Assembly: GCA_963663865.1 (NCBI GenBank)
Contig: OY760686.1
Location: 2,272,001-2,336,000, forward strand
Length of the DNA: 64,000 nt
Reading direction: 5' to 3'
Source of the DNA: Spirochaetota bacterium
Lineage (GTDB): Bacteria; Spirochaetota; UBA4802; UBA5550
Shown: piece after piece, positions 10,143-20,542 of the stretch
Position numbering within the stretch: the first letter of the stretch is position 1
Layout: every line of letters starts with the position of its first letter
Notes under the pieces: model-generated
What the model was told of the DNA's origin: nothing
Databases searched by the model: none
Seen by the model: the letters and a program-made list of their open reading frames with translations, nothing else
Program-made: the position numbers and the translations under genes

Positions 10143-11117
10143 TTATGGCCTCAGCGCCGCGATGACCTCCCGAGCGACACGCTCACTGTAGCAGCCCGAG
10201 TTCCACCTGCCGGGGCTCCATCCCTTAAGAAATCTGTGGAAGTCCGCCCATGCAACACGGTACATACCCCTCCACTCCCCTTCAAGGGCATCCGCGTCGA
10301 TATCCCTTTTCCGCCGCGCAAGCTGATTTCTCAACTCATCAAAATAGAAGTTGAGGATATCGGCCTCCATTGCTTCGCACTCATCTTCCTGCAGACAGCT
10401 TCCGGCAAAGTATGCGAGGTCCTTCATGCCGCAGCCTCCTCCGGTGTACTGGAAATCAACCGCAGCAGCTTTCAGCCCGTCCTCCGAAAAGCAGAAGTTT
10501 TCAAGCTTCGCGTCTCCGTGCAGCACTGTTTTGAACCGGCAGCTCTGAAGCCTGCTGTCGATCGCGCGGGCCGCGTTTTTCAGCGGGCCGTCCGAAAGCG
10601 CCCTCAGCTCATCGGGCCTTGTATCGAGATGCCAATAGGTCCCGACGCTCCAGAGGCCCTCAGGCTTCCTGCCCATGAAGCAGGCGTGAAACGCAGCCAG
10701 CCATGAGATACAGGCCTTCATCTCCTTCCAGTTTACACTTCCCCGGCGCAGGGTATACCCGGCCTCGTTGAGGTCTTCAAGCACCATTATGAACTCATCG
10801 CCCTGCCAGTCCGAGGCGTAACAGGCGGGTACCCGGCACGCATCATCGCATGAGGACGCCCATTCACGGTAAAAGGCCATCTCAACCCTGTAGGATTTGA
10901 CTTTACGCTGATGTGAAAGTCCGGAACCACCGGAGGTTCTGCCCATTCCGGAAGGAAGCTGAACGTGTTTGACTATTACTGATTTTTGTTCAGAGCCGGT
11001 CAGGCCGCATCGAAAAATCCGGCCATAGCCGCCCCATAGCTCCTGGATTTCATCGATTTCAAAGAGGTCTTCTGGCCCTGTTGACTTTAGCAGAAGAGTG
11101 CGGAAGTGTTTGTTCAT
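10143..11117 (-). CDS. Phosphotransferase (APH/choline/ecdysteroid-kinase-like)
   Basis: HGDAKLENF catalytic loop and DFQY metal-binding motif. Confidence 0.85.
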
Positions 11118-11202: not shown

Positions 11203-12294
11203 CTACAAAGGACTCCTTATATTATTAAGTGAAGGATTTTTACAATGCGTATAGATTGACGTAGTAGAAAGGTTCTTGTGGCCTAACAGCACCTGGATAT
11301 ATCGAATATCAATACCGTTTTCAAGAAGATGTGTAGCAAAACTATGCCTAAGGCTATGGCATGAGGCCTTTTTTTTGACTCCAGACCTGTAAAGGGCCAT
11401 CCTGAAAACCTGCTGGATTGTTCGCACAGTTAATTTCTTTTTATCATCAGAATGAAAGTTTGAAACAAACAGATAATCCATGGGCCCTTTGTGTTCAATG
11501 TATTCTTGAAGCTGTGATTTAAGAGATTCAGAAAAGATAGTTAACCTGTCTTTTTTCCCTTTTCCCTGATTTATCCTGATATTCAGGTTTTCCAGATTGA
11601 TGTCACCTGCCCTTAGATTCACAACCTCGGAAACTCTAAGCCCGGCAGAATATAATAGAGAAATCATTAGCCTGTGTTTTAGATTATTAATTGATTTAAT
11701 AATCTTCAGGACCTCGTTTCTTGTTAATATCTGCGGCAATCCCTTCTCTTTCTTTATCCCATTCATGAAAGAGATATCAATATCTCTGTGCAAGACTTCA
11801 CGAAAATAGAAGAGAAGCGCAAAGCGGTAAATTCTAATCGATGACACAGACACTTTTCTTGTATCAGTCAGATAAAGAAAATATTTATACATATCTGCAG
11901 AGGTAACAGATTCAATTGAAAGATTACATTGAGAATGAAAAAATCCGGCTATCTGAACAAGAGCACCGGAATAATTCTTTAGCGTTTTTGGACTATATCG
12001 TTTCAGCTTCATAAGCTCACAGAATCTGTCATAACCAGAAATCAGATTAGTTACCTGTCGGCGGTCAGGTATACCGGACGTTTTTGTAATGCCTATATCT
12101 TCCAGCATTTTATTGAAAATATAACGGCTTACATTATGGGAATTATAGTAATCCCGAATTAGTTCGATAAACCGGGTATTTTGAGTAATACTTTTACTCA
12201 CAAAAAAGCTGTAAATTTCGCTATTACTGATATACCTGAATGATTTATTGTATTCCCTTTCCATTTCAGTCAGCAGTTTCAAATATTCGTCCAT
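11203..12294 (-). CDS. Tyrosine recombinase in the integron-integrase position (SAM-like N-domain), lacking the IntI-specific insertion
   Basis: YSPKTLKNY SAM-like domain; catalytic LLYSAGLR, GKGKKDR, HSLRHSFATHLL, LLGH, IYTH; IntI-like C-terminus IRSPL; GGAGG RBS. Confidence 0.93.
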   Translation of the reverse strand: MDEYLKLLTEMEREYNKSFRYISNSEIYSFFVSKSITQNTRFIELIRDYYNSHNVSRYIFNKMLEDIGITKTSGIPDRRQVTNLISGYDRFCELMKLKRYSPKTLKNYSGALVQIAGFFHSQCNLSIESVTSADMYKYFLYLTDTRKVSVSSIRIYRFALLFYFREVLHRDIDISFMNGIKKEKGLPQILTRNEVLKIIKSINNLKHRLMISLLYSAGLRVSEVVNLRAGDINLENLNIRINQGKGKKDRLTIFSESLKSQLQEYIEHKGPMDYLFVSNFHSDDKKKLTVRTIQQVFRMALYRSGVKKKASCHSLRHSFATHLLENGIDIRYIQVLLGHKNLSTTSIYTHCKNPSLNNIRSPL

Positions 12295-12416
12295 ATCTTA
12301 TCCTCCAACTTAAGCTTAACCGAATATTTTATGCAGTTTGTCTTACTTTTTTGAATTATTTACGAATATTAATTGATTTTTATATATTTTTAAGCTGAGA
12401 ATGTTAAATGAAATTT

Positions 12417-12440
12417 TTGTGCAGACAATGATAGTTGTGC
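12417..12440 (+). other. Candidate attI site (crossover G|TT at 12434/12435)
   Basis: GCAGAC-AATGATA-GTTGTGC; the sequence from GTT onward is complementary to the 3' end of cassette 1, and no attC hairpin precedes it. Confidence 0.7.
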
Positions 12441-12469
12441 GCAATTTTTAAAATAATATCAGGTGTACT

Positions 12470-13354
12470 ATGAGCAGAAAACCAGGAAGATATTATGTAC
12501 ATAGAGTTTCTAAAATTGGTGATGTACCTGTTGAAAAAATATTAGATTCTATTATTAATTCAACATACATTCACTATAATAGCTACAAGTTTGCTTTTAC
12601 GGGTACTATATTAGAAGAAGATTATATTTTTTCATTCTTAACTAAATATTATCCTGAAGATGAAGTAACTATCGTTGACGAGTCAACATCACATATTGAA
12701 CAGAAAAAACAAGAAATTAAAAATTTGGTTAAAGCTGTTTGTCCATTTATTTTTATACCGAAAAAATCAATAATTGCTCATTTACATGTATGGAATGAAA
12801 TTACACCAGAAAATTTTGCCAAAATATTTCCAGTGCTACATGATGTTAAGCATAACACTATGTTCAGTGAAATAGTCATTGAACCTATTGCTGATTTAGA
12901 AGCATTTCTTAATAAACTTACAAAGATGACAGAAATTTCAAAAATAAAATCACGAATATATCCGTCAAATCCTCATTATAGTAAATATTGGAAGCTCCTT
13001 GATGAGTATTTAAAAAAGAGAAATGTCCAAGAAATGAATCTTTCTGAAGAATCAAAACTGGGTGGTTTAAAAACCCCGTTAGTTGAGGCAACGCAAAAAA
13101 TTCTAGATAATGAAGACATCCATGACATAGAAGACCTAAATTTAATTGAAATAAGTGTAATCATGGCTACAGATGGGTATGGCAATTCTGAAATACAAGG
13201 AAAGATCGATGGAGTTGAAGAAGCTATTTTTACAAACAAGAGTAATTTTACCTTTTTATTTGAGAAAGAACCATCTCATGAATTATTATACAAGAAAGTC
13301 GAAAAAATAGTAAAAAGAATTGAAAAGGAAAGGGGACTTCTCAGTGATGAATAA
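12470..13354 (+). CDS. Cassette 1 gene A, hypothetical soluble protein (DUF4747-like by recall)
   Basis: 294 aa ORF with RBS; PSNP and ATDGYG motifs. Confidence 0.55.
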   Translation: MSRKPGRYYVHRVSKIGDVPVEKILDSIINSTYIHYNSYKFAFTGTILEEDYIFSFLTKYYPEDEVTIVDESTSHIEQKKQEIKNLVKAVCPFIFIPKKSIIAHLHVWNEITPENFAKIFPVLHDVKHNTMFSEIVIEPIADLEAFLNKLTKMTEISKIKSRIYPSNPHYSKYWKLLDEYLKKRNVQEMNLSEESKLGGLKTPLVEATQKILDNEDIHDIEDLNLIEISVIMATDGYGNSEIQGKIDGVEEAIFTNKSNFTFLFEKEPSHELLYKKVEKIVKRIEKERGLLSDE

Positions 13355-13841
13355 TAAATTAATCCTCTTTTTTAGAGAATTTTTTTTATCATTTGATTTT
13401 ATTGTTTTTTTGATTTCGATGCTTGTTGTTATAATTAACAAATTAGACATTGAGTTTTTTGAAATATTTTACAGATTTATACTAACAGACAATAAAATAC
13501 TCTCAATTTCAATAATTGTTGTCTTCCATGTCTCAATATTATTTTATTGCATAAAGGCATACAATATGATTTTATTTCCCGATGATAAATTTAATAAGAT
13601 ATTAATTGAATTTGAGTTTTACGATGAATTAAAAATTACAGCATTGGTTTCTATACTAGAACCAGTGATTGCAATATTGATTATGCTTTATTTGCTGATT
13701 TTTGATCTTCAAACAATTATAACAAATAAAGCTATTTTGATCCTTGGGTTAGTATTTTATTCTTTGGTAGACTCAATTACTACTTTTTTTGCACAAAATA
13801 AAATTAAAGAATCACTTTATAAATTTGATCCATATGAATAA
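13347..13841 (+). CDS. Cassette 1 gene B, ~4-TM membrane protein
   Basis: Four hydrophobic segments; ATG 13347 overlaps the gene A stop (ORF track starts at 13320). Confidence 0.7.
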   Translation: MNNKLILFFREFFLSFDFIVFLISMLVVIINKLDIEFFEIFYRFILTDNKILSISIIVVFHVSILFYCIKAYNMILFPDDKFNKILIEFEFYDELKITALVSILEPVIAILIMLYLLIFDLQTIITNKAILILGLVFYSLVDSITTFFAQNKIKESLYKFDPYE

Positions 13842-13860
13842 CATAACTTTTAAAAACTGC

Positions 13861-14021
13861 GCACAACAAATCGTAACAGCTCCGGTCCTCAAGCAGCAGA
13901 GCTGCTTTCCGGTCCTCGGCCTGACGGCACATTGCATTTTGTCACGGATTTGTGCGTTCGCACAAACCGCGCCAACTGGCTAAAGCCAGACATGCAACGT
14001 CAGTTACGATAAACGTTATAT
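13861..14021 (+). other. attC-like site 1
   Basis: GCACAAC...GTTATAT with ATCGTAAC/GTTACGAT inner arms; 161 bp; GC-rich. Confidence 0.82.
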
Positions 14022-14054
14022 GAAAGACGGGCTAAATTTATTAAGGTGTACACA

Positions 14055-14669
14055 ATGAATGATGGTATAAAAGCATTCTATGATGCAACTGCGAAATTTA
14101 CAGCAGATGAATGGTATCCTAACGATTTATTATTGCCAACCATTGCTGATTTTATTTCTGTATTAACAAAAAAACCGTTGGTGCTTGATCTTGGATGTGG
14201 TCCTGGACATGAAAGTAAAAGATTATCAAAGGCTGGTGCAATTGTCACAGGAATAGATTTTAGTGAAGAATGTATTGATATAGCGAAGCAGAGAAGCCCA
14301 GAGTGTAATTTTGTAGTAGGGGATATCAGATCTCTGACTAAAGATATTGGAATTTTTGATGGGATATTTGCTTGTGCATCATTGATACATTTTCCTATGG
14401 ACGAATTATCATTCGTTTTTAAAAGCATTAATGCTATTCTTAAATATAATGGTTATTTAAACATAATAATATTAGATGGTGAAGGAGTAAGTAAAAAGTA
14501 TAGTAATTTAGAATTTGAAGGTAAAAAATATAATAGAACCGTATATCTTTATAGTAAAGATTTTATTATAAATGAGGCTGTGCAACAAGGTTTTTCATTT
14601 GTTCGTGAAGGATTTCTTGAAGAAGAATTGAAGGAATATGACTGGAGAAATTATTTATTTAAAAAATAA
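14055..14669 (+). CDS. Cassette 2, class I SAM-dependent methyltransferase
   Basis: VLDLGCGPG, GIDFS, FDGIFACASLIH motifs; alternative GTG start at 14046. Confidence 0.9.
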   Translation: MNDGIKAFYDATAKFTADEWYPNDLLLPTIADFISVLTKKPLVLDLGCGPGHESKRLSKAGAIVTGIDFSEECIDIAKQRSPECNFVVGDIRSLTKDIGIFDGIFACASLIHFPMDELSFVFKSINAILKYNGYLNIIILDGEGVSKKYSNLEFEGKKYNRTVYLYSKDFIINEAVQQGFSFVREGFLEEELKEYDWRNYLFKK

Positions 14670-14692
14670 TTTATTCTATTAGCCCGTCCTTC

Positions 14693-14790
14693 ATATAACA
14701 AAGCTTATGCGCTTCACTCGCTTTCGCTCGTTCGGGCTTCGCCAAATCGCGCAAAAGGCCGCGCAACGTCGTTTAGCCAAGACGTTAGGC
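14693..14790 (+). other. attC-like site 2
   Basis: ATATAAC...GTTAGGC, 98 bp, imperfect inverted arms. Confidence 0.8.
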
Positions 14791-14818
14791 GACATGACGC
14801 ACTTTAATTATTGGAGGT

Positions 14819-15748
14819 ATGAACTTGTCACTTTTAAGGGATATTCAAGATGCAGCAATAAATTCTGGAATTGAAATTTCAACTGTTTTGCGCAAGTGTA
14901 AAGTTCTATCTGCCCGACTTGGCAATAGTGAATTTAAAAGATGGGTTGATCAAGAATTGAATGGTTACGAAAGTATCGATGATTTACCAAGTTATCGTAT
15001 TTTAACTGTCCAATCAAAAGGACATTTCTCAGGCCCCTTTGGTAGTGGCATAAAGAATGGTGATATACCCTTAATCTGCTTACCTAAAGAATTAAGAGAA
15101 TCTTTAAGCAAAGCTTATTGTACTCAACCAATTTCAGCCTATGAAGCATTAATAAAATCATCAAAAGGCGATAATTTTCAAGAACAATGGCCACCCGATT
15201 TAGTTGCATTATATGGTGGTGAAATTTATCAGAACATGAGCTGCATGACAGCATGGAAAACAATTCCTTATGGATTAATAGTTGCATTAATTGATACTGT
15301 TAGAAATCGAGTTTTGAATTTTGTAATAGAACTAGAATCTGAATCACCTGATGCAGGTGAATCACCAATCAATAAACCATCAATATCACGGGATAAAATT
15401 GCACATGTTTTCAATACTACCATATATGGAAATGTCGGAAATATTGCAGATGGAAGCTCAAATATAAATCAAACTGCAACATTAAATGTTCACAAAGATG
15501 ATCTTTCAAGTTTAAGGACAGAACTAGGAAAACTTGGGATACCTCAAGCAGAACTTGATGAATTAGAAATATCAATCAAAGCTGATGATAAAAAAGAAGT
15601 AATAAAAAATAAAAATCTTGGTTTACAAGTTACTAATTGGCTTGGTGGATTATTTACTAAATCGGCCAAAGGAGTTATTCCTGTACTTCAGGGACTAACT
15701 GCAAATATGATTACAAAAGCTTTATTTTTATATTATGGAATTGAATGA
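14819..15748 (+). CDS. Cassette 3, AbiTii-domain protein
   Basis: N-terminal LRKCKVLSARL...WVDQELNGY...LPSYR signature of AbiTii. Confidence 0.8.
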   Translation: MNLSLLRDIQDAAINSGIEISTVLRKCKVLSARLGNSEFKRWVDQELNGYESIDDLPSYRILTVQSKGHFSGPFGSGIKNGDIPLICLPKELRESLSKAYCTQPISAYEALIKSSKGDNFQEQWPPDLVALYGGEIYQNMSCMTAWKTIPYGLIVALIDTVRNRVLNFVIELESESPDAGESPINKPSISRDKIAHVFNTTIYGNVGNIADGSSNINQTATLNVHKDDLSSLRTELGKLGIPQAELDELEISIKADDKKEVIKNKNLGLQVTNWLGGLFTKSAKGVIPVLQGLTANMITKALFLYYGIE

Positions 15749-15761
15749 AGTGCGTCACGTC

Positions 15762-15905
15762 GCCTAACACGGCGTCATGCGCTTCGTCGCTGCGCTCCTC
15801 GGCCTCCTCGGCCTCCGCGCCCAAGATATGAAGACGGGCGCTCCGGCACATTTTCACCTCCGCTGCGCTAAGGTGAAAACGTCGTATACGCCGGTGGCGT
15901 TATAT
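15762..15905 (+). other. attC-like site 3
   Basis: GCCTAAC...GTTATAT, 144 bp; CGGCGT(C)ATGCG / CGTATACGCCG arms. Confidence 0.85.
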
Positions 15906-15987
15906 GAAATGCGGCTTAACAGATTTTAAAGATCCGGCCATCCATGGCCGGTTATAAATAAATCAACTCTATATTTAGAGGAAAATT

Positions 15988-16572
15988 ATGTCAAAAAATG
16001 AAATAATTATTAAGCTGTTATCAATGTTATTCGAAAGAAATGAAGCATATCACGATCAAAAAGAAAAAATGATTCATGCTGGAGTTTTAATCGAAATTGG
16101 TTTATTAACTGGAATCACATCCTTAAATAAACTTCCATTTGACTGTATTAGTTTAAATATTATAATATTTATTTTATTATGGCTTATCATTTATTCTTTC
16201 ATTCGATTCCATTCTCTTTATAAAAGAACTGCTGCAGTTTATCGTATAGCATATGAACGAGCTCTATGGTTGTGTTATAATGATTCACCAAAAAATAATA
16301 ATACTAAACTTAACAAGAAAAAAAATGAAAGTAAATTATCAAAGACAAAAATAATTCTATCGTTTCTATTCCCATTCTATAATGATAATTTGTTTTTAGA
16401 TTCAGATGTAACAAAAGCAGAACGTAATAATGCATATTATTCAAATTTCTTTTATGAAATTTTAGATAAATCAAGAAATGAACATGTTGGAGCAACTAAT
16501 TATGAAGTTATAATTTCCATAGGAAGTATAATAATTTTAATTATAGGAATAATAAAAATTGTATTATTTTAA
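15988..16572 (+). CDS. Cassette 4, hypothetical membrane protein
   Basis: 194 aa with about 3 hydrophobic helices; GAGG RBS. Confidence 0.7.
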   Translation: MSKNEIIIKLLSMLFERNEAYHDQKEKMIHAGVLIEIGLLTGITSLNKLPFDCISLNIIIFILLWLIIYSFIRFHSLYKRTAAVYRIAYERALWLCYNDSPKNNNTKLNKKKNESKLSKTKIILSFLFPFYNDNLFLDSDVTKAERNNAYYSNFFYEILDKSRNEHVGATNYEVIISIGSIIILIIGIIKIVLF

Positions 16573-16642
16573 AATATTTTTCTTTAATATTAGCTCGTAC
16601 ATCCGTGTACTCGCTAACTATGTGCTACAAGCGCCGCACTTC

Positions 16643-16776
16643 ATATAACACGGCGTCATGCGCTTCGTCGCTGCGCTCCTCGGCCTCCGCGCCCACAATA
16701 TGAAGACGGGCGCTCTGGCACATTTTCACCTTCGCTGCGCTGCGGTGAAAACGTCGCATACGCCGGAACGTTATGC
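16643..16776 (+). other. attC-like site 4
   Basis: ATATAAC...GTTATGC, 134 bp; near-identical to site 3; extrahelical C in the left arm. Confidence 0.87.
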
Positions 16777-16815
16777 GAAAGAGCCCGTTGAACTTTTTTA
16801 TAAAAGGAGACTAAT

Positions 16816-17439
16816 TTGAGTCAATATATAATTGTTGGGAATACAAGGTATTTTTGTGAGAAAACAATTGATTGCTACGAAAATCTTCTCCGCCTTGATA
16901 AACAGTTACATGAAGAAAAAGAACGAAAATCTCGCGATGACGCAATTTATGATGATTTCGAATTAAGTTTTAAGGAGGGACGATTAGCAAAGGATTTATT
17001 AAAAGAAAAGATGTCTATGATCGTTTTTGCTTCGTTTACGATTGAATCATATATTAACGGATACGCAATATACAGTCTAGGAAATAAATATTTTGAAGAT
17101 CATTTAGAAAAAATAAATATTAAAAATAAATGGATTGTATTTCCAAAACTAATTTGTGGTTCAGATTTTCCAAAAGACAAGAAAAGCTGGAATTTACTTG
17201 ATAAATTAATTGATAACAGAAATAAATTAGCACATGATAAACCAAAACGAATTAAGGTTGATGAAATTGATTCATTAAAAAGGAATACTAAAGTAAAACA
17301 TATTTCACCAAGTGAAATTATTGATGCTTTTTATGAACTACAGAAAGATTTAATCTCAATCGATGAAAGCATATCTGAATATTTAATGATTGATGGGTAT
17401 AATAATAAAAGGATTGAAAAATTAAAAAAATCTTCTTAA
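16816..17439 (+). CDS. Cassette 5, HEPN-like protein (putative RNase)
   Basis: Helical protein with IESYIN and RNKLAH (Rx4H) motifs; TTG start after AAGGAG. Confidence 0.6.
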   Translation: MSQYIIVGNTRYFCEKTIDCYENLLRLDKQLHEEKERKSRDDAIYDDFELSFKEGRLAKDLLKEKMSMIVFASFTIESYINGYAIYSLGNKYFEDHLEKINIKNKWIVFPKLICGSDFPKDKKSWNLLDKLIDNRNKLAHDKPKRIKVDEIDSLKRNTKVKHISPSEIIDAFYELQKDLISIDESISEYLMIDGYNNKRIEKLKKSS

Positions 17440-17456
17440 TAATTACGGGCTCCATC

Positions 17457-17575
17457 GGACAACAAAGCTTACACGCTGCGTCGCTATCGGTCCTTGGCAC
17501 TCGCCTTGAGAAGCATGCTCGGCAAATTGGCTTCCCTTACGCTTCGCCGACTTCGTGTAGCCGCGGGCGTTAGGC
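17457..17575 (+). other. attC-like site 5
   Basis: GGACAAC...GTTAGGC, 119 bp; GCT(T)ACACG / CGTGTAGC arms. Confidence 0.8.
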
Positions 17576-17596
17576 GCAATATCAATTGGAGAAGAA

Positions 17597-18097
17597 ATGA
17601 TTCGAGAAGCAATATTATCTGACTCAAATGTAATAGCTGAAATAATTGTAGAGACTTGGCAAAAATCGTTTATTAATATAATTGATCAGAATTACATAGA
17701 GAGCATGGATGTACAACGGTTTGTCAACATAATGAAGGATAATATACAATTGAATAAAGAAATTATATTTGTGTATGAGGAAAATGAAATAATTAAAGGT
17801 TTTATCTCAGGTAAAATCACAGAATATTCTGACCACCAGTGTGAAATAGTTGGTTTTTATATTTTGCCCAAGTATCAACGAATGGGGATTGGCAAAATAT
17901 TATTTCAACAAATTATAGAATATTTTTCTAGGCATAATTATAAAAAAATGATTCTTTGGACTTTGAATAGTGCAAAAAATAATTCATTCTATAAGAATAA
18001 TGGTGGAGAAATTACTGATAAAAAAATATTGGAGATTGGTGGTAAGACGTACGATGGAATAGGATTTTCATTTAATCTTCCCCCTATTTCCAATTGA
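17597..18097 (+). CDS. Cassette 6, GNAT N-acetyltransferase
   Basis: MIREA start, YILPKYQRMGIGK acetyl-CoA motif, FYKNNGG. Confidence 0.92.
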   Translation: MIREAILSDSNVIAEIIVETWQKSFINIIDQNYIESMDVQRFVNIMKDNIQLNKEIIFVYEENEIIKGFISGKITEYSDHQCEIVGFYILPKYQRMGIGKILFQQIIEYFSRHNYKKMILWTLNSAKNNSFYKNNGGEITDKKILEIGGKTYDGIGFSFNLPPISN

Positions 18098-18103
18098 TAC
18101 AGC

Positions 18104-18183
18104 GCCTAACAGAGAATAGGCGTTTCCGCTTCGCTTAACCCAAATTGGCCTGTGGCCAACTTCGTTTAGCCAGGACGTTATAC
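18104..18183 (+). other. attC-like site 6
   Basis: GCCTAAC...GTTATAC, 80 bp; right arm CGTTTAGCCAGGACGTT resembles that of site 2. Confidence 0.75.
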
Positions 18184-18234
18184 GAAATCCGGCAAAACTT
18201 AATTGTGGCACTTTTAACAGAAAAAGGGAACTAA

Positions 18235-18843
18235 ATGAAAGCAAGTGTAATTTTAGCACATCCATACTCTCAGAGCTTCAATCATGCAATATATCAGGCA
18301 GTATGCTCAAAACTTGAGAGTCTGAATATTGAAGTATTTAAACATGATCTATATCAGGAACAATTTAGTCCTATACTTACCGTTGAAGAATTAGGATCGG
18401 ATACTTCAACCGATATTCTTGTAAATCAATATGCATCAGAATTAATGGAATCAACCTTTATTTTTTTTATTCATCCAAATTGGTGGGGACAACCTCCTGC
18501 AATTTTAAAAGGCTATATTGACCGCGTAATTCGTCCACCATATTCATATGATTTCCCAACCGGAGATTCCGGAGGTGGTCTTCCTGTCGGAAAATTGAAA
18601 GGGAAATATGGTATTGTTTTAAATACATCTAATACTGAAGAGGAAAGAGAAAATAATTACTTTAACGATCCGTTGGAAAATATATGGAAACAATGTGTTT
18701 TTGGGTTCTGCGGAATAGAAAAATATTATAGAAAAATGCTTCGAATTATAGCTGATAGCACTTTGGAACAAAGAAATAAATGGATTATAGAAATTAAAGA
18801 AGTAGTTGAAAATGTTATCGGTAATTCGCTGGACATCGCATAA
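18235..18843 (+). CDS. Cassette 7, NAD(P)H:quinone oxidoreductase (flavodoxin-like fold)
   Basis: LAHPYSQSFN, HPNWWGQPPAILKGYIDRV; the stop codon lies inside the inverse core GCATAAC. Confidence 0.9.
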   Translation: MKASVILAHPYSQSFNHAIYQAVCSKLESLNIEVFKHDLYQEQFSPILTVEELGSDTSTDILVNQYASELMESTFIFFIHPNWWGQPPAILKGYIDRVIRPPYSYDFPTGDSGGGLPVGKLKGKYGIVLNTSNTEEERENNYFNDPLENIWKQCVFGFCGIEKYYRKMLRIIADSTLEQRNKWIIEIKEVVENVIGNSLDIA

Positions 18844-18915
18844 CTAGGGATATATTCGACGGCTTCGCCACATTTTTGTGTTGCAAAAACTGATCATATA
18901 CCTGAAACTTTATAG
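18838..18915 (+). other. Degenerate attC-like site 7 (core GTT reads TTT)
   Basis: GCATAAC...AAAC-TTTATAG; AGGGATATAT / ATATACCT arms. Confidence 0.6.
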
Positions 18916-19108
18916 TCAAATGCCCAGCCCCCGTCGGAATGAAATATATTGAAAAACAACTGTCATTCATGCCAGTTGAAACTTAAAGTATTGTTCAGAT
19001 TAAAGAAAGTGACGTTTAAGTGAATATATTAACCTTATTGTGGAATGAATTTTTAATAATTTGTTGATCAACGGCAATGAAAATGCAATTTTATAAAGGA
19101 GGAAAGGT

Positions 19109-19588
19109 ATGTTGAAAATAATCGCTATGGTCGCTTTGCTAATCATGATTTCGGGGCTTTTGATTGCTGGAGATACCGTTGTTAAGGATAACGGCAAGCA
19201 GCCATGGGTGGTCGACATCGAAGATCTGACAGAAAAAAATGAAAATTTCCGTACCTCTCAGTGGACAGGTCGGAACCTTCAGATGACCGTCATGTCGCTT
19301 AAGCCGGGTGAGGAAATAGGATTAGAAAAGCATGACAAGAACGATCAGTTCATCCGTGTTGAAAAAGGGAATGCCCGTGTTGTTATGGGCGTGTCGAAAG
19401 ATAAAATGACTTTCGACAAAAGAGTTTCAGATGACTGGGCTATTTTTATCCCAAGCGGTTTCTGGCACAATATTACCAACGAAGGTGATAAACCGCTCAA
19501 GGTTTACGTTATTTACGCTCCACCAGAGCACCCCGCTGGAACATTGCACAAGACTTTCAAGGAATCGGAAGCTGCTCATGGTCATTGA
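19109..19588 (+). CDS. Secreted cupin-domain protein
   Basis: Signal peptide; GEEIGLEKH...DQFIRVEKG...IPSGFWHNITN...YAPPEH. Confidence 0.9.
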   Translation: MLKIIAMVALLIMISGLLIAGDTVVKDNGKQPWVVDIEDLTEKNENFRTSQWTGRNLQMTVMSLKPGEEIGLEKHDKNDQFIRVEKGNARVVMGVSKDKMTFDKRVSDDWAIFIPSGFWHNITNEGDKPLKVYVIYAPPEHPAGTLHKTFKESEAAHGH

Positions 19589-19842
19589 CCGTGGAGGAGT
19601 GAACAGCCATTGACAAAGGACTGCAAGTGATAAAAAAACGTTGCCCAATAAGGCTTTGTCGAGATTTTTGCGAAGGCAGAATACCAACCAATCGACTACT
19701 CTGACCGCCCAACTCCGTATAGTCGTGAAATGTTGGAAATAGTCGCCAATGTTTTTTTGGGTAAGAAGAATCCTATACCGTGTCAGATAAAGAAAGAAAT
19801 ACTGCCATTTTTATGCTATAACAAACAATGATGTTGGTATAA

Positions 19843-20187
19843 ATGAAGATTCTCAATAAAGCCCCCTTTCAAAATATAATAGATTTTATTGATGTAACCG
19901 TGGACTCTGAAGATTTGATGAACTGGCTCGTTAAATTAGAATATTTACCCAATAATCTCCGCCATGATCATATTATCCGAATGAGACAACGAATGATAGA
20001 AAATGGAGAAGCGGAAATTTTGATTGATATTCTAAATTTGATTAATAATCGAGATATCTTATCCGCTATTAATCTTGTAGTGAAAGATGTTTATCATTCT
20101 TGTATTCGCAACGATCACACCAGCTTAATGGTCTTTTGTAAAAGATATGGGAAAAATGATCCGTTTTTAAATAATAGAGTAATTTAA
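19843..20187 (+). CDS. Hypothetical protein (possible decayed cassette)
   Basis: 114 aa ORF between GTT-core and AAC-core motifs. Confidence 0.45.
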   Translation: MKILNKAPFQNIIDFIDVTVDSEDLMNWLVKLEYLPNNLRHDHIIRMRQRMIENGEAEILIDILNLINNRDILSAINLVVKDVYHSCIRNDHTSLMVFCKRYGKNDPFLNNRVI

Positions 20188-20225
20188 TGGTCATAGTGAA
20201 ATAATATAATAAGATCAATATCTTC

Positions 20226-20323
20226 GCACAACAAAGGTTGGCTGCTCCATCCTGGCGTTGTCGCAAAGCCGCATTGCGTCTTCGGCCTGAGTTTGCCACT
20301 CTTTTTTGAACACACAGTTAAGC
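20226..20323 (+). other. Degenerate attC-like site
   Basis: CTTC-GCACAAC-AAAGG start resembles sites 1, 2 and 5; GC-rich; ends GTTAAGC; arms pair poorly. Confidence 0.45.
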
Positions 20324-20350
20324 AATAATTATTGGAAGAGTTAATAAGTT

Positions 20351-20542
20351 ATGGACGGTAGAAATCGCAGCAACATAAACCAGGGCAAAAAAGTATCCAT
20401 AGTCTTGAAAAAGGATCAGCGGAACGGGAAATTAACCGAAGGTACTGTAAAAGACATTTTAACAAACGCAGCAACACATCCACATGGCATAAAGGTGAGA
20501 CTCGAATCGGGAGATGTTGGAAGAGTAAAGATTATCCATTAA
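20351..20542 (+). CDS. YwbE (DUF2196) family protein
   Basis: IVLKKDQRNGKLTEGTVKDILT...HPHGIKVRLESGDVGRV. Confidence 0.9.
   Translation: MDGRNRSNINQGKKVSIVLKKDQRNGKLTEGTVKDILTNAATHPHGIKVRLESGDVGRVKIIH

Follow-up and report, generated by a model that had tools for sequence, protein, structure and literature searches.

The stretch of DNA analysed here (64,000 nt, referred to below as the window) comes from a Spirochaetota bacterium (assembly GCA_963663865.1, contig OY760686.1, positions 2,272,001 to 2,336,000 of the forward strand) and contains a gene for an IntI-like tyrosine recombinase lying divergent from an array of gene cassettes. The locus is very probably a sedentary chromosomal integron-like platform run by this recombinase, which we infer to be the catalyst and which belongs to a Spirochaetota family named NEXT in this work after its N-terminal extension. 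An earlier reading of the letters alone (the initial annotation) had proposed a non-canonical integron class whose integrase handles attC-like sites without the I2 helix, and this proposal now gains support from comparative evidence. The parts of an integron platform are present, namely an integrase gene beside an attI site and cassettes each ending in an attC site bounded by AAC and GTT, with the crossover at G|TT. The association of the gene with the arrays, the structure of the sites, the crossover point and the mobility of the cassettes are evident from the comparison of related sequences.

The features of the locus are listed below. An own-end repeat is an inverted repeat formed by the start and the end of one and the same cassette; its detection required 12 of the first 14 positions matching and an extension to position 16.

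11203-12294, minus strand: recombinase gene, 363 aa, IntI-like, without the I2 insertion
about 12040-12294, minus strand: family-specific N-terminal four-helix domain of the recombinase, residues 1 to about 85
residues 88-173 of the recombinase: SAM-like core-binding domain
residues 189-351 of the recombinase: catalytic domain
12312-12434, plus strand: left half of attI, ending in ...TGTGCAGACAATGATAG; crossover between G12434 and T12435
12435-14015, plus strand: cassette 1, two open reading frames (ORFs; 12470-13354 and 13320-13841) of no known family; attC1 13856-14026; own-end repeat 12434-12453 / 13848-13867
14016-14784, plus strand: cassette 2, class I SAM methyltransferase (14046-14669); attC2 14688-14795; own-end repeat 14015-14035 / 14679-14699
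14785-15899, plus strand: cassette 3, AbiTii abortive-infection protein (14819-15748); attC3 15757-15910; own-end repeat 14784-14804 / 15748-15768
15900-16770, plus strand: cassette 4, membrane-like ORF of 194 aa (15988-16572); attC4 16638-16781; own-end repeat 15899-15915 / 16633-16649
16771-17569, plus strand: cassette 5, weak HEPN-like ORF (16816-17439); attC5 17452-17580; own-end repeat apparently decayed, 13/17 positions
17570-18177, plus strand: cassette 6, GNAT acetyltransferase (17597-18097); attC6 18099-18188; own-end repeat 17569-17590 / 18089-18110
18177-18198, plus strand: right half of attI (GTTATACGAAATCCGGCAAAAC), displaced to the array end; no complementary partner downstream; homologous to the right-hand part of the uninterrupted attI (copy D, below)

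The recombinase possesses the R-K-H-R-H-Y residue set of tyrosine recombinases, with R220, K245, R316, H339 and Y348 invariant among 76 family members and H313 kept in at least 90% of them. Pfam profiles recognise its catalytic domain (PF00589, 147.6 bits) and a SAM-like core-binding domain typical of IntI and Xer (PF13495, 53.6 bits). The initial annotation was thus right in assigning all catalytic residues to the protein, as it was in counting only 23 aa from KDR to YLF in the segment GKGKKDR-LTIFSESLKSQLQEYIEHKGPMD-YLF. The alignment with the Vibrio cholerae integrase VchIntIA (2a3v) consists of two pieces, residues 93-266 of the recombinase corresponding to 11-181 and residues 291-363 to 245-317, and the gap between them holds 24 residues in the recombinase versus 63 in VchIntIA. 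What is absent, as claimed earlier, is the IntI insertion of roughly 38 aa, which forms the I2-helix domain between the beta-hairpin and the HxLRH motif. The number of residues from R250 to H313 is bimodal in an alignment of 140 relatives, being 58-66 in all short forms and Xer proteins (62 in the recombinase) and 99-102 in 31 canonical IntI proteins, with no forms of intermediate length.

Recognition by an IntI-specific profile had been named in the initial annotation as a result that would speak against its proposal; the recombinase matches such profiles in two stretches and below cut-off (TIGR02249, 204.1 vs 265; NF011946, 143.5 vs 435). The sole NCBIfam model passed, and that barely, is NF040815 of the XerA type (221.3 vs 220), the name of which, 'site-specific tyrosine recombinase/integron integrase', covers both functions, so that the pass settles nothing. 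The C-terminal ...RSPL tail is common to the recombinase and VchIntIA. The AlphaFold model computed from the 76 family members has a mean pLDDT of 91.5, and the closest solved structure is VchIntIA (E 2e-16), ahead of XerA.

Residues 1-67 modelled alone form a four-helix bundle with pLDDT >90 over 62 residues. The profile of this N-terminal domain found 45 representatives at E <=0.001 among 1.84 billion; the domain stands at the N-terminus in nearly all of these matches and in every strong one, and the full-length matches are recombinases of about 360-370 aa. Foldseek gave no match at E <=0.001 with the domain alone. A wide structural search placed several tyrosine-recombinase core-binding domains among its top matches (Brujita integrase, XerA, Cre, XerD, VchIntIA and 3nrw), and the domain may be a duplicated core-binding domain, which is only a lead.

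A protein search returned >100 full-length relatives of 350-390 aa with 38-54% identity from Spirochaetota and Leptospiraceae, named in their sources, where a name was given, only 'XerD' or 'tyrosine-type recombinase'. Two features are common to all, a motif PKYISNxEI within the N-terminal extension and an NPxLxGIKSPL tail, and the IntI insertion is found in none. Full-length orthologues are present in 27 genomes besides that of the window (401 genomes of the phylum sampled). The gene neighbourhood was compared for the 18 orthologues, the window included, whose upstream sequence is 800 nt or longer. The first cassette with an own-end repeat starts 32-171 nt from the called start codon in 16 of the 18 and follows a conserved attI motif of the form CAGACAAT-(4 nt)-GTT, so the link between gene and array is not accidental. 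In L099/L121, 3360 nt separate the gene from its first such cassette, and L100 shows no cassette within 1446 nt. The other outcome held in the initial annotation to tell against it, homologues apart from arrays and a canonical IntI elsewhere in the genome, was therefore not what was found, as the window's genome also has no canonical IntI (see below). The contigs of 10 further orthologues end 3-670 nt upstream of the gene; repeats commonly break assemblies. Arrays of at least 17 cassettes (L125, a complete genome) and at least 15 (L120) occur, and among 40 cassettes with an ORF over more than half of the cassette length the longest ORF reads away from the recombinase in 35.

A second insertion-less family was observed in the phylum (L115, L116, L018 and others), with frames of about 350-380 aa that match only residues ~90-363 of the recombinase at 37-44% identity. 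Matches at E <=1e-40 occur in 66/75 sampled genomes of a Leptospiraceae family (code f15).

The array in the window extends from G12434 to G18177 on the plus strand, divergent from the recombinase gene, and comprises six genes or gene pairs, each lying between inverted repeats of 17-22 nt that run GTT...AAC. GC-rich segments of 67-148 nt separate the AAC of one cassette from the GTT of the next. This agrees with the arrangement first described, in which unrelated genes alternate with hairpins divergent from the recombinase gene, although two of its figures had to be revised. The attC sites number six, with GTT at 14015, 14784, 15899, 16770, 17569 and 18177, and not at least seven; a decayed attC-like left half (GCACAAC-AA-AGGTTGG-CTGCTCC...) lies at 20228-20324, 2 kb past the array end, and was rejected as the seventh site, having no matching right half. 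The array also does not span to 20542. Its end is set at G18177 by the right half of attI, which occupies 18177-18198, and this places the flavodoxin-like, cupin and DUF2196 genes (18235-20542) outside it. The R' arm at 18177 was also considered as a truncated cassette, a possibility rejected in favour of the attI right half as no downstream partner was found.

In the whole 3.16-Mb genome there are 32 own-end repeats of at least 16 nt, and A/C at position 11 is found in only 7/32, five in the 5.7-kb array of the window and two in two mini-arrays. The repeat signature was matched 5 times in a further 1.04 Mb (80 unrelated loci). The signature is thus rare both across the genome and in unrelated loci. 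The sites attC4 and attC3 are 86-92% identical. PADLOC, run on 8 proteins, matched only AbiTii and the weak HEPN protein, and the scan for a cassette promoter (Pc) gave 4 promoter-like sites vs 3.7 expected. Directly downstream of the recombinase gene lies an EcKL/APH-type kinase gene (10143-11117, minus strand), whose 1-kb bin has 55% G+C vs 37% and 29% in the next two bins and is probably foreign DNA.

The crossover point can be read from attI itself. The left half (12312-12449) has three more copies in the genome, designated A, B and D (W for the window), with no recombinase gene beside them; percentages are identities to D:

C1:2870313, copy D: uninterrupted at G|TT, reading ...caatgatag|TTATACGAAAGTCAGAGCGCC...
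near 638.9 kb, copy A: 2215 nt inserted at G|TT; 84% to D over the left 130 nt and 73% over the right 100 nt
near 979.8 kb, copy B: 2454 nt inserted at G|TT; 90% to D over the left 130 nt and 81% over the right 100 nt
window, copy W: 5743 nt inserted at G|TT; 79% to D over the left 130 nt and 64% over the right 100 nt

The insertions in A, B and W are located exactly at the G|TT of D. From this comparison of empty and filled sites it follows that the array of the window is the segment from G12434 to G18177 and that 18177-18198 is the displaced right half of attI. The empty copy spans C1:2870311-2870424 with both halves joined directly at G|TT and is a possible natural landing pad for cassette capture.

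Mini-arrays of two cassettes each lie behind the solo attI copies at C1:638755-641113 and C1:979654-982247, and a cassette with a 225-aa ORF is common to the two. An IS3-like transposase fragment, judged from the ORF, lies upstream of the second (979654-982247). In L120, two cassettes are each present twice at separate places, one of 494 nt at 97.6% identity and one of 620 nt at 92%; the identity runs from GTT to the next GTT(A), so the attC is carried along. Single attC sites off any attI were seen beside small ORFs at C1:1702368-1702476 (+) and C1:2243244-2243350 (-); one of these ORFs looks like a helix-turn-helix protein (XRE-type), and these may be cassettes at secondary sites. A related strain present in public run X4 (depth 53) has a contig that covers 11707-12432, i.e. 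the 5' part of the recombinase gene and attI, with 12 differences. Its end at 12432 falls two bases short of the crossover G, which is at most a weak hint of other cassettes behind the same attI.

The structure of the attC-type sites was derived from 38 distinct sites of 10 loci, anchored at AAC and GTT. They have a common plan. The 5' part consists of an R'' box ACKKCRYRYAAC and the L'' stem, separated by 1-2 nt or, in four sites, by 3-5 nt; the middle consists of an interior conserved in part (of the type CTKCGCTCC...GGGCTTCGCCACA), an inner hairpin and ACGTC; the 3' part consists of L', 4-5 nt often ending in AAC and an R' box with the 12-nt consensus GTTRYRYGMMAT. The L stem is ungapped with 9-11 bp in 30/38 sites and 16 bp in two more (the search tolerated at most one mismatch), and its score averages 9.3 vs 3.6 with partners taken from other genomes. 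The right spacer is longer than the left one by 2-4 nt in 37/38 sites. In the definition of Bouvier et al. 2009 (PMC2727003), the R''-L'' arm of a classical attC site carries two or three extrahelical bases. No extrahelical bases were found on that arm in the sites described here, the surplus bases being on the R'-L' arm instead, and the predicted NEXT sites thus differ from classical attC.

RNAalifold, run on 12 aligned sites from 6 genomes, predicted the L helix, the inner helix and two small hairpins. Pairing holds in 96.3% of cells vs 76.1% in shuffled and 30.6-52.3% in slid alignments, and 19 pairs are changed on both sides, a number reached in 0/500 shuffles. The R helix is formed by the cassette's own start (R' arm) and end (R'' arm); in 67 distinct cassettes it pairs at positions 1-10 and 12-17 and fades by ~20, giving 17-20 bp with many pair types at positions 4-7, 9-10 and 12-20. 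At position 11, A stands opposite C in 62/67 cassettes, corresponding to a G·T pair in the bottom strand. When circular sites were reconstructed and folded, the bottom strand proved more stable than the top strand in 36/38 (mean -64.6 vs -58.4 kcal/mol), and relative to its form in array context a site gained 13.7 kcal/mol in stability in the circular form. Taken together, these comparisons indicate selection for a two-helix hairpin in the excised form. Minimum free energy folds of single attC sites in array context contain classical stems for attC1 and attC4 only. An energy-based scan for AAC...GTT hairpins failed to separate true sites from background and was replaced by the own-end repeat signature together with a hidden Markov model (HMM).

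It is reasonable to suggest the following mechanism. Cassettes would occur as circles, in which attC would be one long hairpin of three parts: an R helix of 17-20 bp made from the cassette's own ends, with the GTT/AAC start, the consensus GTTRYRYGMMAT and the position-11 A·C; an internal loop that is asymmetric, with 1-2 nt facing 4-5 nt; and a perfect L helix of 9-11 bp with a branched tip of partly conserved sequence. The recombinase would join this hairpin to double-stranded attI at G|TT, and new cassettes would enter beside the recombinase gene, reading away from it. The substrate would be the folded bottom strand, with one strand exchanged and the junction resolved by replication, as in integrons and CTXphi. 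The two duplex arms, i.e. the R helix with at least 12 conserved bp and the L helix, would closely imitate a duplex core site, and if the hairpin mimics the full core site, the I2 helix and extrahelical bases would for that reason be unnecessary. Strand choice and a block to the second exchange could be provided by the asymmetric loop and the position-11 G·T, and the extra N-terminal domain could bind the outer R helix or its mismatch.

The window's genome (one contig, 98% complete) has no canonical IntI scoring above the TIGR02249 cut-off. XerD-like (307 aa) and XerC-like (367 aa) genes are located elsewhere in it, and XerD was found in 40/41 sampled genomes of the phylum. The NEXT recombinase is not orthologous to these housekeeping proteins, the Xer clade being split off at support 100. 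In the same order, canonical IntI is present in 8/121 sampled genomes; two such genes were seen back to back and divergent at G100:C33:33360-35958 (L128, L133, L134). Twelve of the attC sites served to build a sequence HMM, which was applied to the loci collected for this work; some of these loci overlap, and some of the NEXT hits arise by construction. The result was as follows:

NEXT loci, 206 kb: 39 hits
neighbourhoods of canonical IntI genes in the same order, 81 kb: 0 hits
Xer loci, 105 kb: 0 hits
other loci, 1.04 Mb: 1 hit (L018, a Spirochaetota metagenome-assembled genome and a member of the second insertion-less family)

Likewise, the surroundings of canonical IntI genes showed no own-end repeats of such length, a weak control as these loci were not confirmed as array-bearing.

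The phylogenetic tree comprised 139 of the 140 aligned proteins: the window's recombinase, 27 orthologues, 55 insertion-less proteins from many phyla, 31 with the insertion and 25 Xer proteins. Duplicate loci (L117-L125, L132-L134, with the second IntI of L134 kept), the broken L136 and the fragment L061 were left out, as were L027, L049 and L067, which had no ORF match. It was obtained by a quick IQ-TREE search with SH-aLRT support on 281 core columns, the insertion columns being dropped. The Xer clade is separated at 100; the insertion-bearing proteins, i.e. canonical IntI, form one clade (support 100) on a long stem of 0.67; NEXT is one clade (support 98) outside it. A clade with support 95 unites NEXT, canonical IntI and seven insertion-less proteins, four from the candidate phyla radiation (CPR), two from DPANN archaea and one from Firmicutes. 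The inner order of this clade is not resolved, and the CPR proteins adjoin NEXT at support 85. NEXT is therefore placed by its sequence as IntI-like, beside canonical IntI and not nested in it, and the tree fails to separate gain from loss of the insertion. This placement fits the statement of Smyshlyaev et al. 2021 (PMC8138268) that the insertion is incompletely conserved within the integron-like subgroup. The four CPR loci (L007, L009, L011, L045) are the nearest insertion-less neighbours of NEXT, and their contigs begin 141-578 nt before the first matched residue, a pattern of contig breaks resembling that upstream of NEXT genes.

Several observations weigh against a working platform run by NEXT. 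Complementarity at positions 1-16 of the R helix is partly given by construction, so that free observations come only from where the mismatch falls and from the pairing past position 16. R'' and R' appear to pair over only about 3-7 bp in array context, so the start of excision is unexplained. L stems are weakened in 3/6 attC sites of the window (attC2, attC5, attC6), the array of which may be decaying. The structural matches of the N-terminal domain have Z values of 4.9-5.7, under the reliable level for helical bundles. Neither excision nor circle nor reordering joints were seen in the contigs of four public runs from three studies, which contain only the window's cassette order; the joints listed in these runs, whose short sides measure 21-38 nt, probably come from other organisms. 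One cassette junction is irregular as well: copy B of the cassette shared by the mini-arrays has a hybrid R' box, identity starting from position 10 and not from G|TT (C1:981443-981460 vs 640309-640326, which differ at positions 4-9 and are identical from 10). Such a junction, unexplained and seen once, would be consistent with strands being exchanged a second time and with an overlap region of 8 bp.

The hybrid junction at position 9/10 is one of the points in favour of a reaction on duplex sites with two strand exchanges, as in Xer or Cre, the hairpin being incidental or having another role. The absence of both I2 and extrahelical bases, adaptations tied to single-strand recombination in the accounts of PMC4792948 and PMC2727003, would suit such a reaction, as would the resemblance of attI to an imperfect inverted repeat around G|TT. 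It is nevertheless improbable, as duplex recombination would not select for the compensatory changes that keep the L helix, the inner helix and the long-range R helix, nor does it go with a position-11 pair that is A·C in one strand and G·T in its complement or with the better folding of the bottom strand in 36/38 sites. Covariation of the L helices between the repeats also speaks against singly inverting genes, as in invertons or shufflons, a possibility raised by the 17-22 nt inverted repeats around every cassette near a tyrosine recombinase gene. With 35/40 coding cassettes in one orientation, duplicated cassettes that bring their own attC along and an empty site contrasting with filled ones, inversion is hardly credible.

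It could also be supposed that the arrays are leftovers of a canonical IntI, lost or located elsewhere, i.e. clusters of attC sites lacking integron integrases (CALIN), and that the recombinase is an unrelated Xer-like or mobile-element integrase. Cury et al. 2016 (PMC4889954) came to this conclusion for 21 recombinases without intI_Cterm beside attC, stating that they 'are not IntI', and reported four intermediate ones with <3 attC each. The NF040815 pass points in the same direction, and so do 2 of the 8 canonical IntI genomes of the order (G400, G051), which also carry a NEXT gene; the G051 IntI match includes a stop codon. Even so, the supposition is very improbable given the complete genome of the window without canonical IntI, the fixed order of gene, attI and first cassette in 16/18 orthologues, the lack of NEXT-type attC in 81 kb around canonical IntI genes and sites without the extrahelical bases that IntI uses. 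Descent of NEXT from a canonical IntI by loss of I2, the enzyme being either degenerate beside fossil arrays or active with co-evolved sites, is somewhat less remote and still unlikely. NEXT, canonical IntI and the seven short forms share the clade with support 95, whose inner order leaves room for it; the C-terminal ...SPL tail is common to VchIntIA, and some attC sites in the window are decayed. Against it stand the single canonical IntI clade on its 0.67 stem with NEXT not inside, the grouping of NEXT with insertion-less CPR proteins, catalytic residues invariant across the 76 members, and cassette copies 97.6-100% identical which, with the series of empty and filled attI sites, suggest recent activity.

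The integron-like platform proposed here for NEXT resembles sedentary chromosomal integrons such as the Vibrio cholerae superintegron with VchIntIA in its divergent recombinase gene, adjoining attI and G|TT crossover, in its mostly co-oriented, promoterless-looking single-gene cassettes with an imperfect palindrome bounded by ...AAC and GTT..., in duplicated and ORF-less cassettes, in defence cargo such as AbiTii and, in some NEXT genomes, in long repeats like the Vibrio cholerae repeats (about 225 nt in L125). Unlike them, NEXT has no I2, scores below the integron-integrase cut-offs, carries an extra N-terminal domain and stands outside the IntI clade, and its sites combine the lack of R''-L'' extrahelical bases with a 12-nt R box consensus, a 17-20 bp R helix from the cassette's own ends and the position-11 A·C / G·T. 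The integration of CTXphi by XerCD, a case of an integrative mobile element exploiting Xer (IMEX), is similar in that a folded single-stranded hairpin without extrahelical bases mimics the duplex site for a recombinase without I2, and Escudero et al. 2016 (PMC4792948) regard it as the nearest analogue and possible ancestor of cassette recombination. The NEXT recombinase differs in being dedicated, in lying beside its own attI and in being distinct from the host XerC/D, and its mobile units are arrays of gene cassettes and not a phage genome at dif.

A partial published precedent for insertion-less arrays is offered by the rAID-1 clusters of Bacteroidales, described by Ross et al. (10.1101/471110) as having an XerD-family recombinase and intergenic repeats 'reminiscent of' integrons, and defined there by a recombinase >44% identical to BF9343_RS08045, located 5' of the array and co-directional with it. 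Compared by description only, rAID-1 belongs to another phylum and carries immunity-gene cargo, and its co-directional recombinase contrasts with the divergent NEXT gene. In spirochaetes, Treponema was called the only clade with integrons in a 2013 study (PMC3607928). No account of the NEXT family, its N-terminal domain, its site structure or an insertion-less integrase tied to spirochaete attC arrays was found in the literature covered, outside of which many subscription papers lie. The expectation of the initial annotation that such loci would be miscalled as CALIN plus an Xer-like gene fits both the source names 'XerD' and 'tyrosine-type recombinase' and the conclusion of Cury et al. 2016.

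A wider view may be put forward tentatively, although it is less likely than the platform itself. The insertion-less IntI-like recombinases could be one old family of integron-type platforms, including NEXT of Spirochaetota, its nearest CPR, DPANN and Firmicutes relatives and further Bacteroidota ones, with cassette hairpins that imitate a complete duplex core site. On this view I2 and extrahelical bases would have been acquired together in one side branch, the canonical integrons; NEXT would be a living relative of the 'proto-integron' of Escudero et al. 2016, and its position-11 G·T and asymmetric loop would have arisen independently as a means of choosing the strand and preventing the second exchange.

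The element, with NEXT as its presumed catalyst, thus appears to work like an integron, yet its enzyme scores below the IntI profiles and its sites lack the hallmarks of classical attC. Both the detection of integrons and the account of their origins rest on the I2 insertion and its extrahelical-base partners. If NEXT runs its arrays without either, surveys would miss whole phyla or file such loci as CALIN plus 'XerD', I2 would not be required for cassette capture as such, and a natural enzyme with its sites would allow a direct test of the step from Xer-like to integron recombination. Defence cargo such as AbiTii, for its part, extends the idea of cassette arrays as defence banks to spirochaetes.

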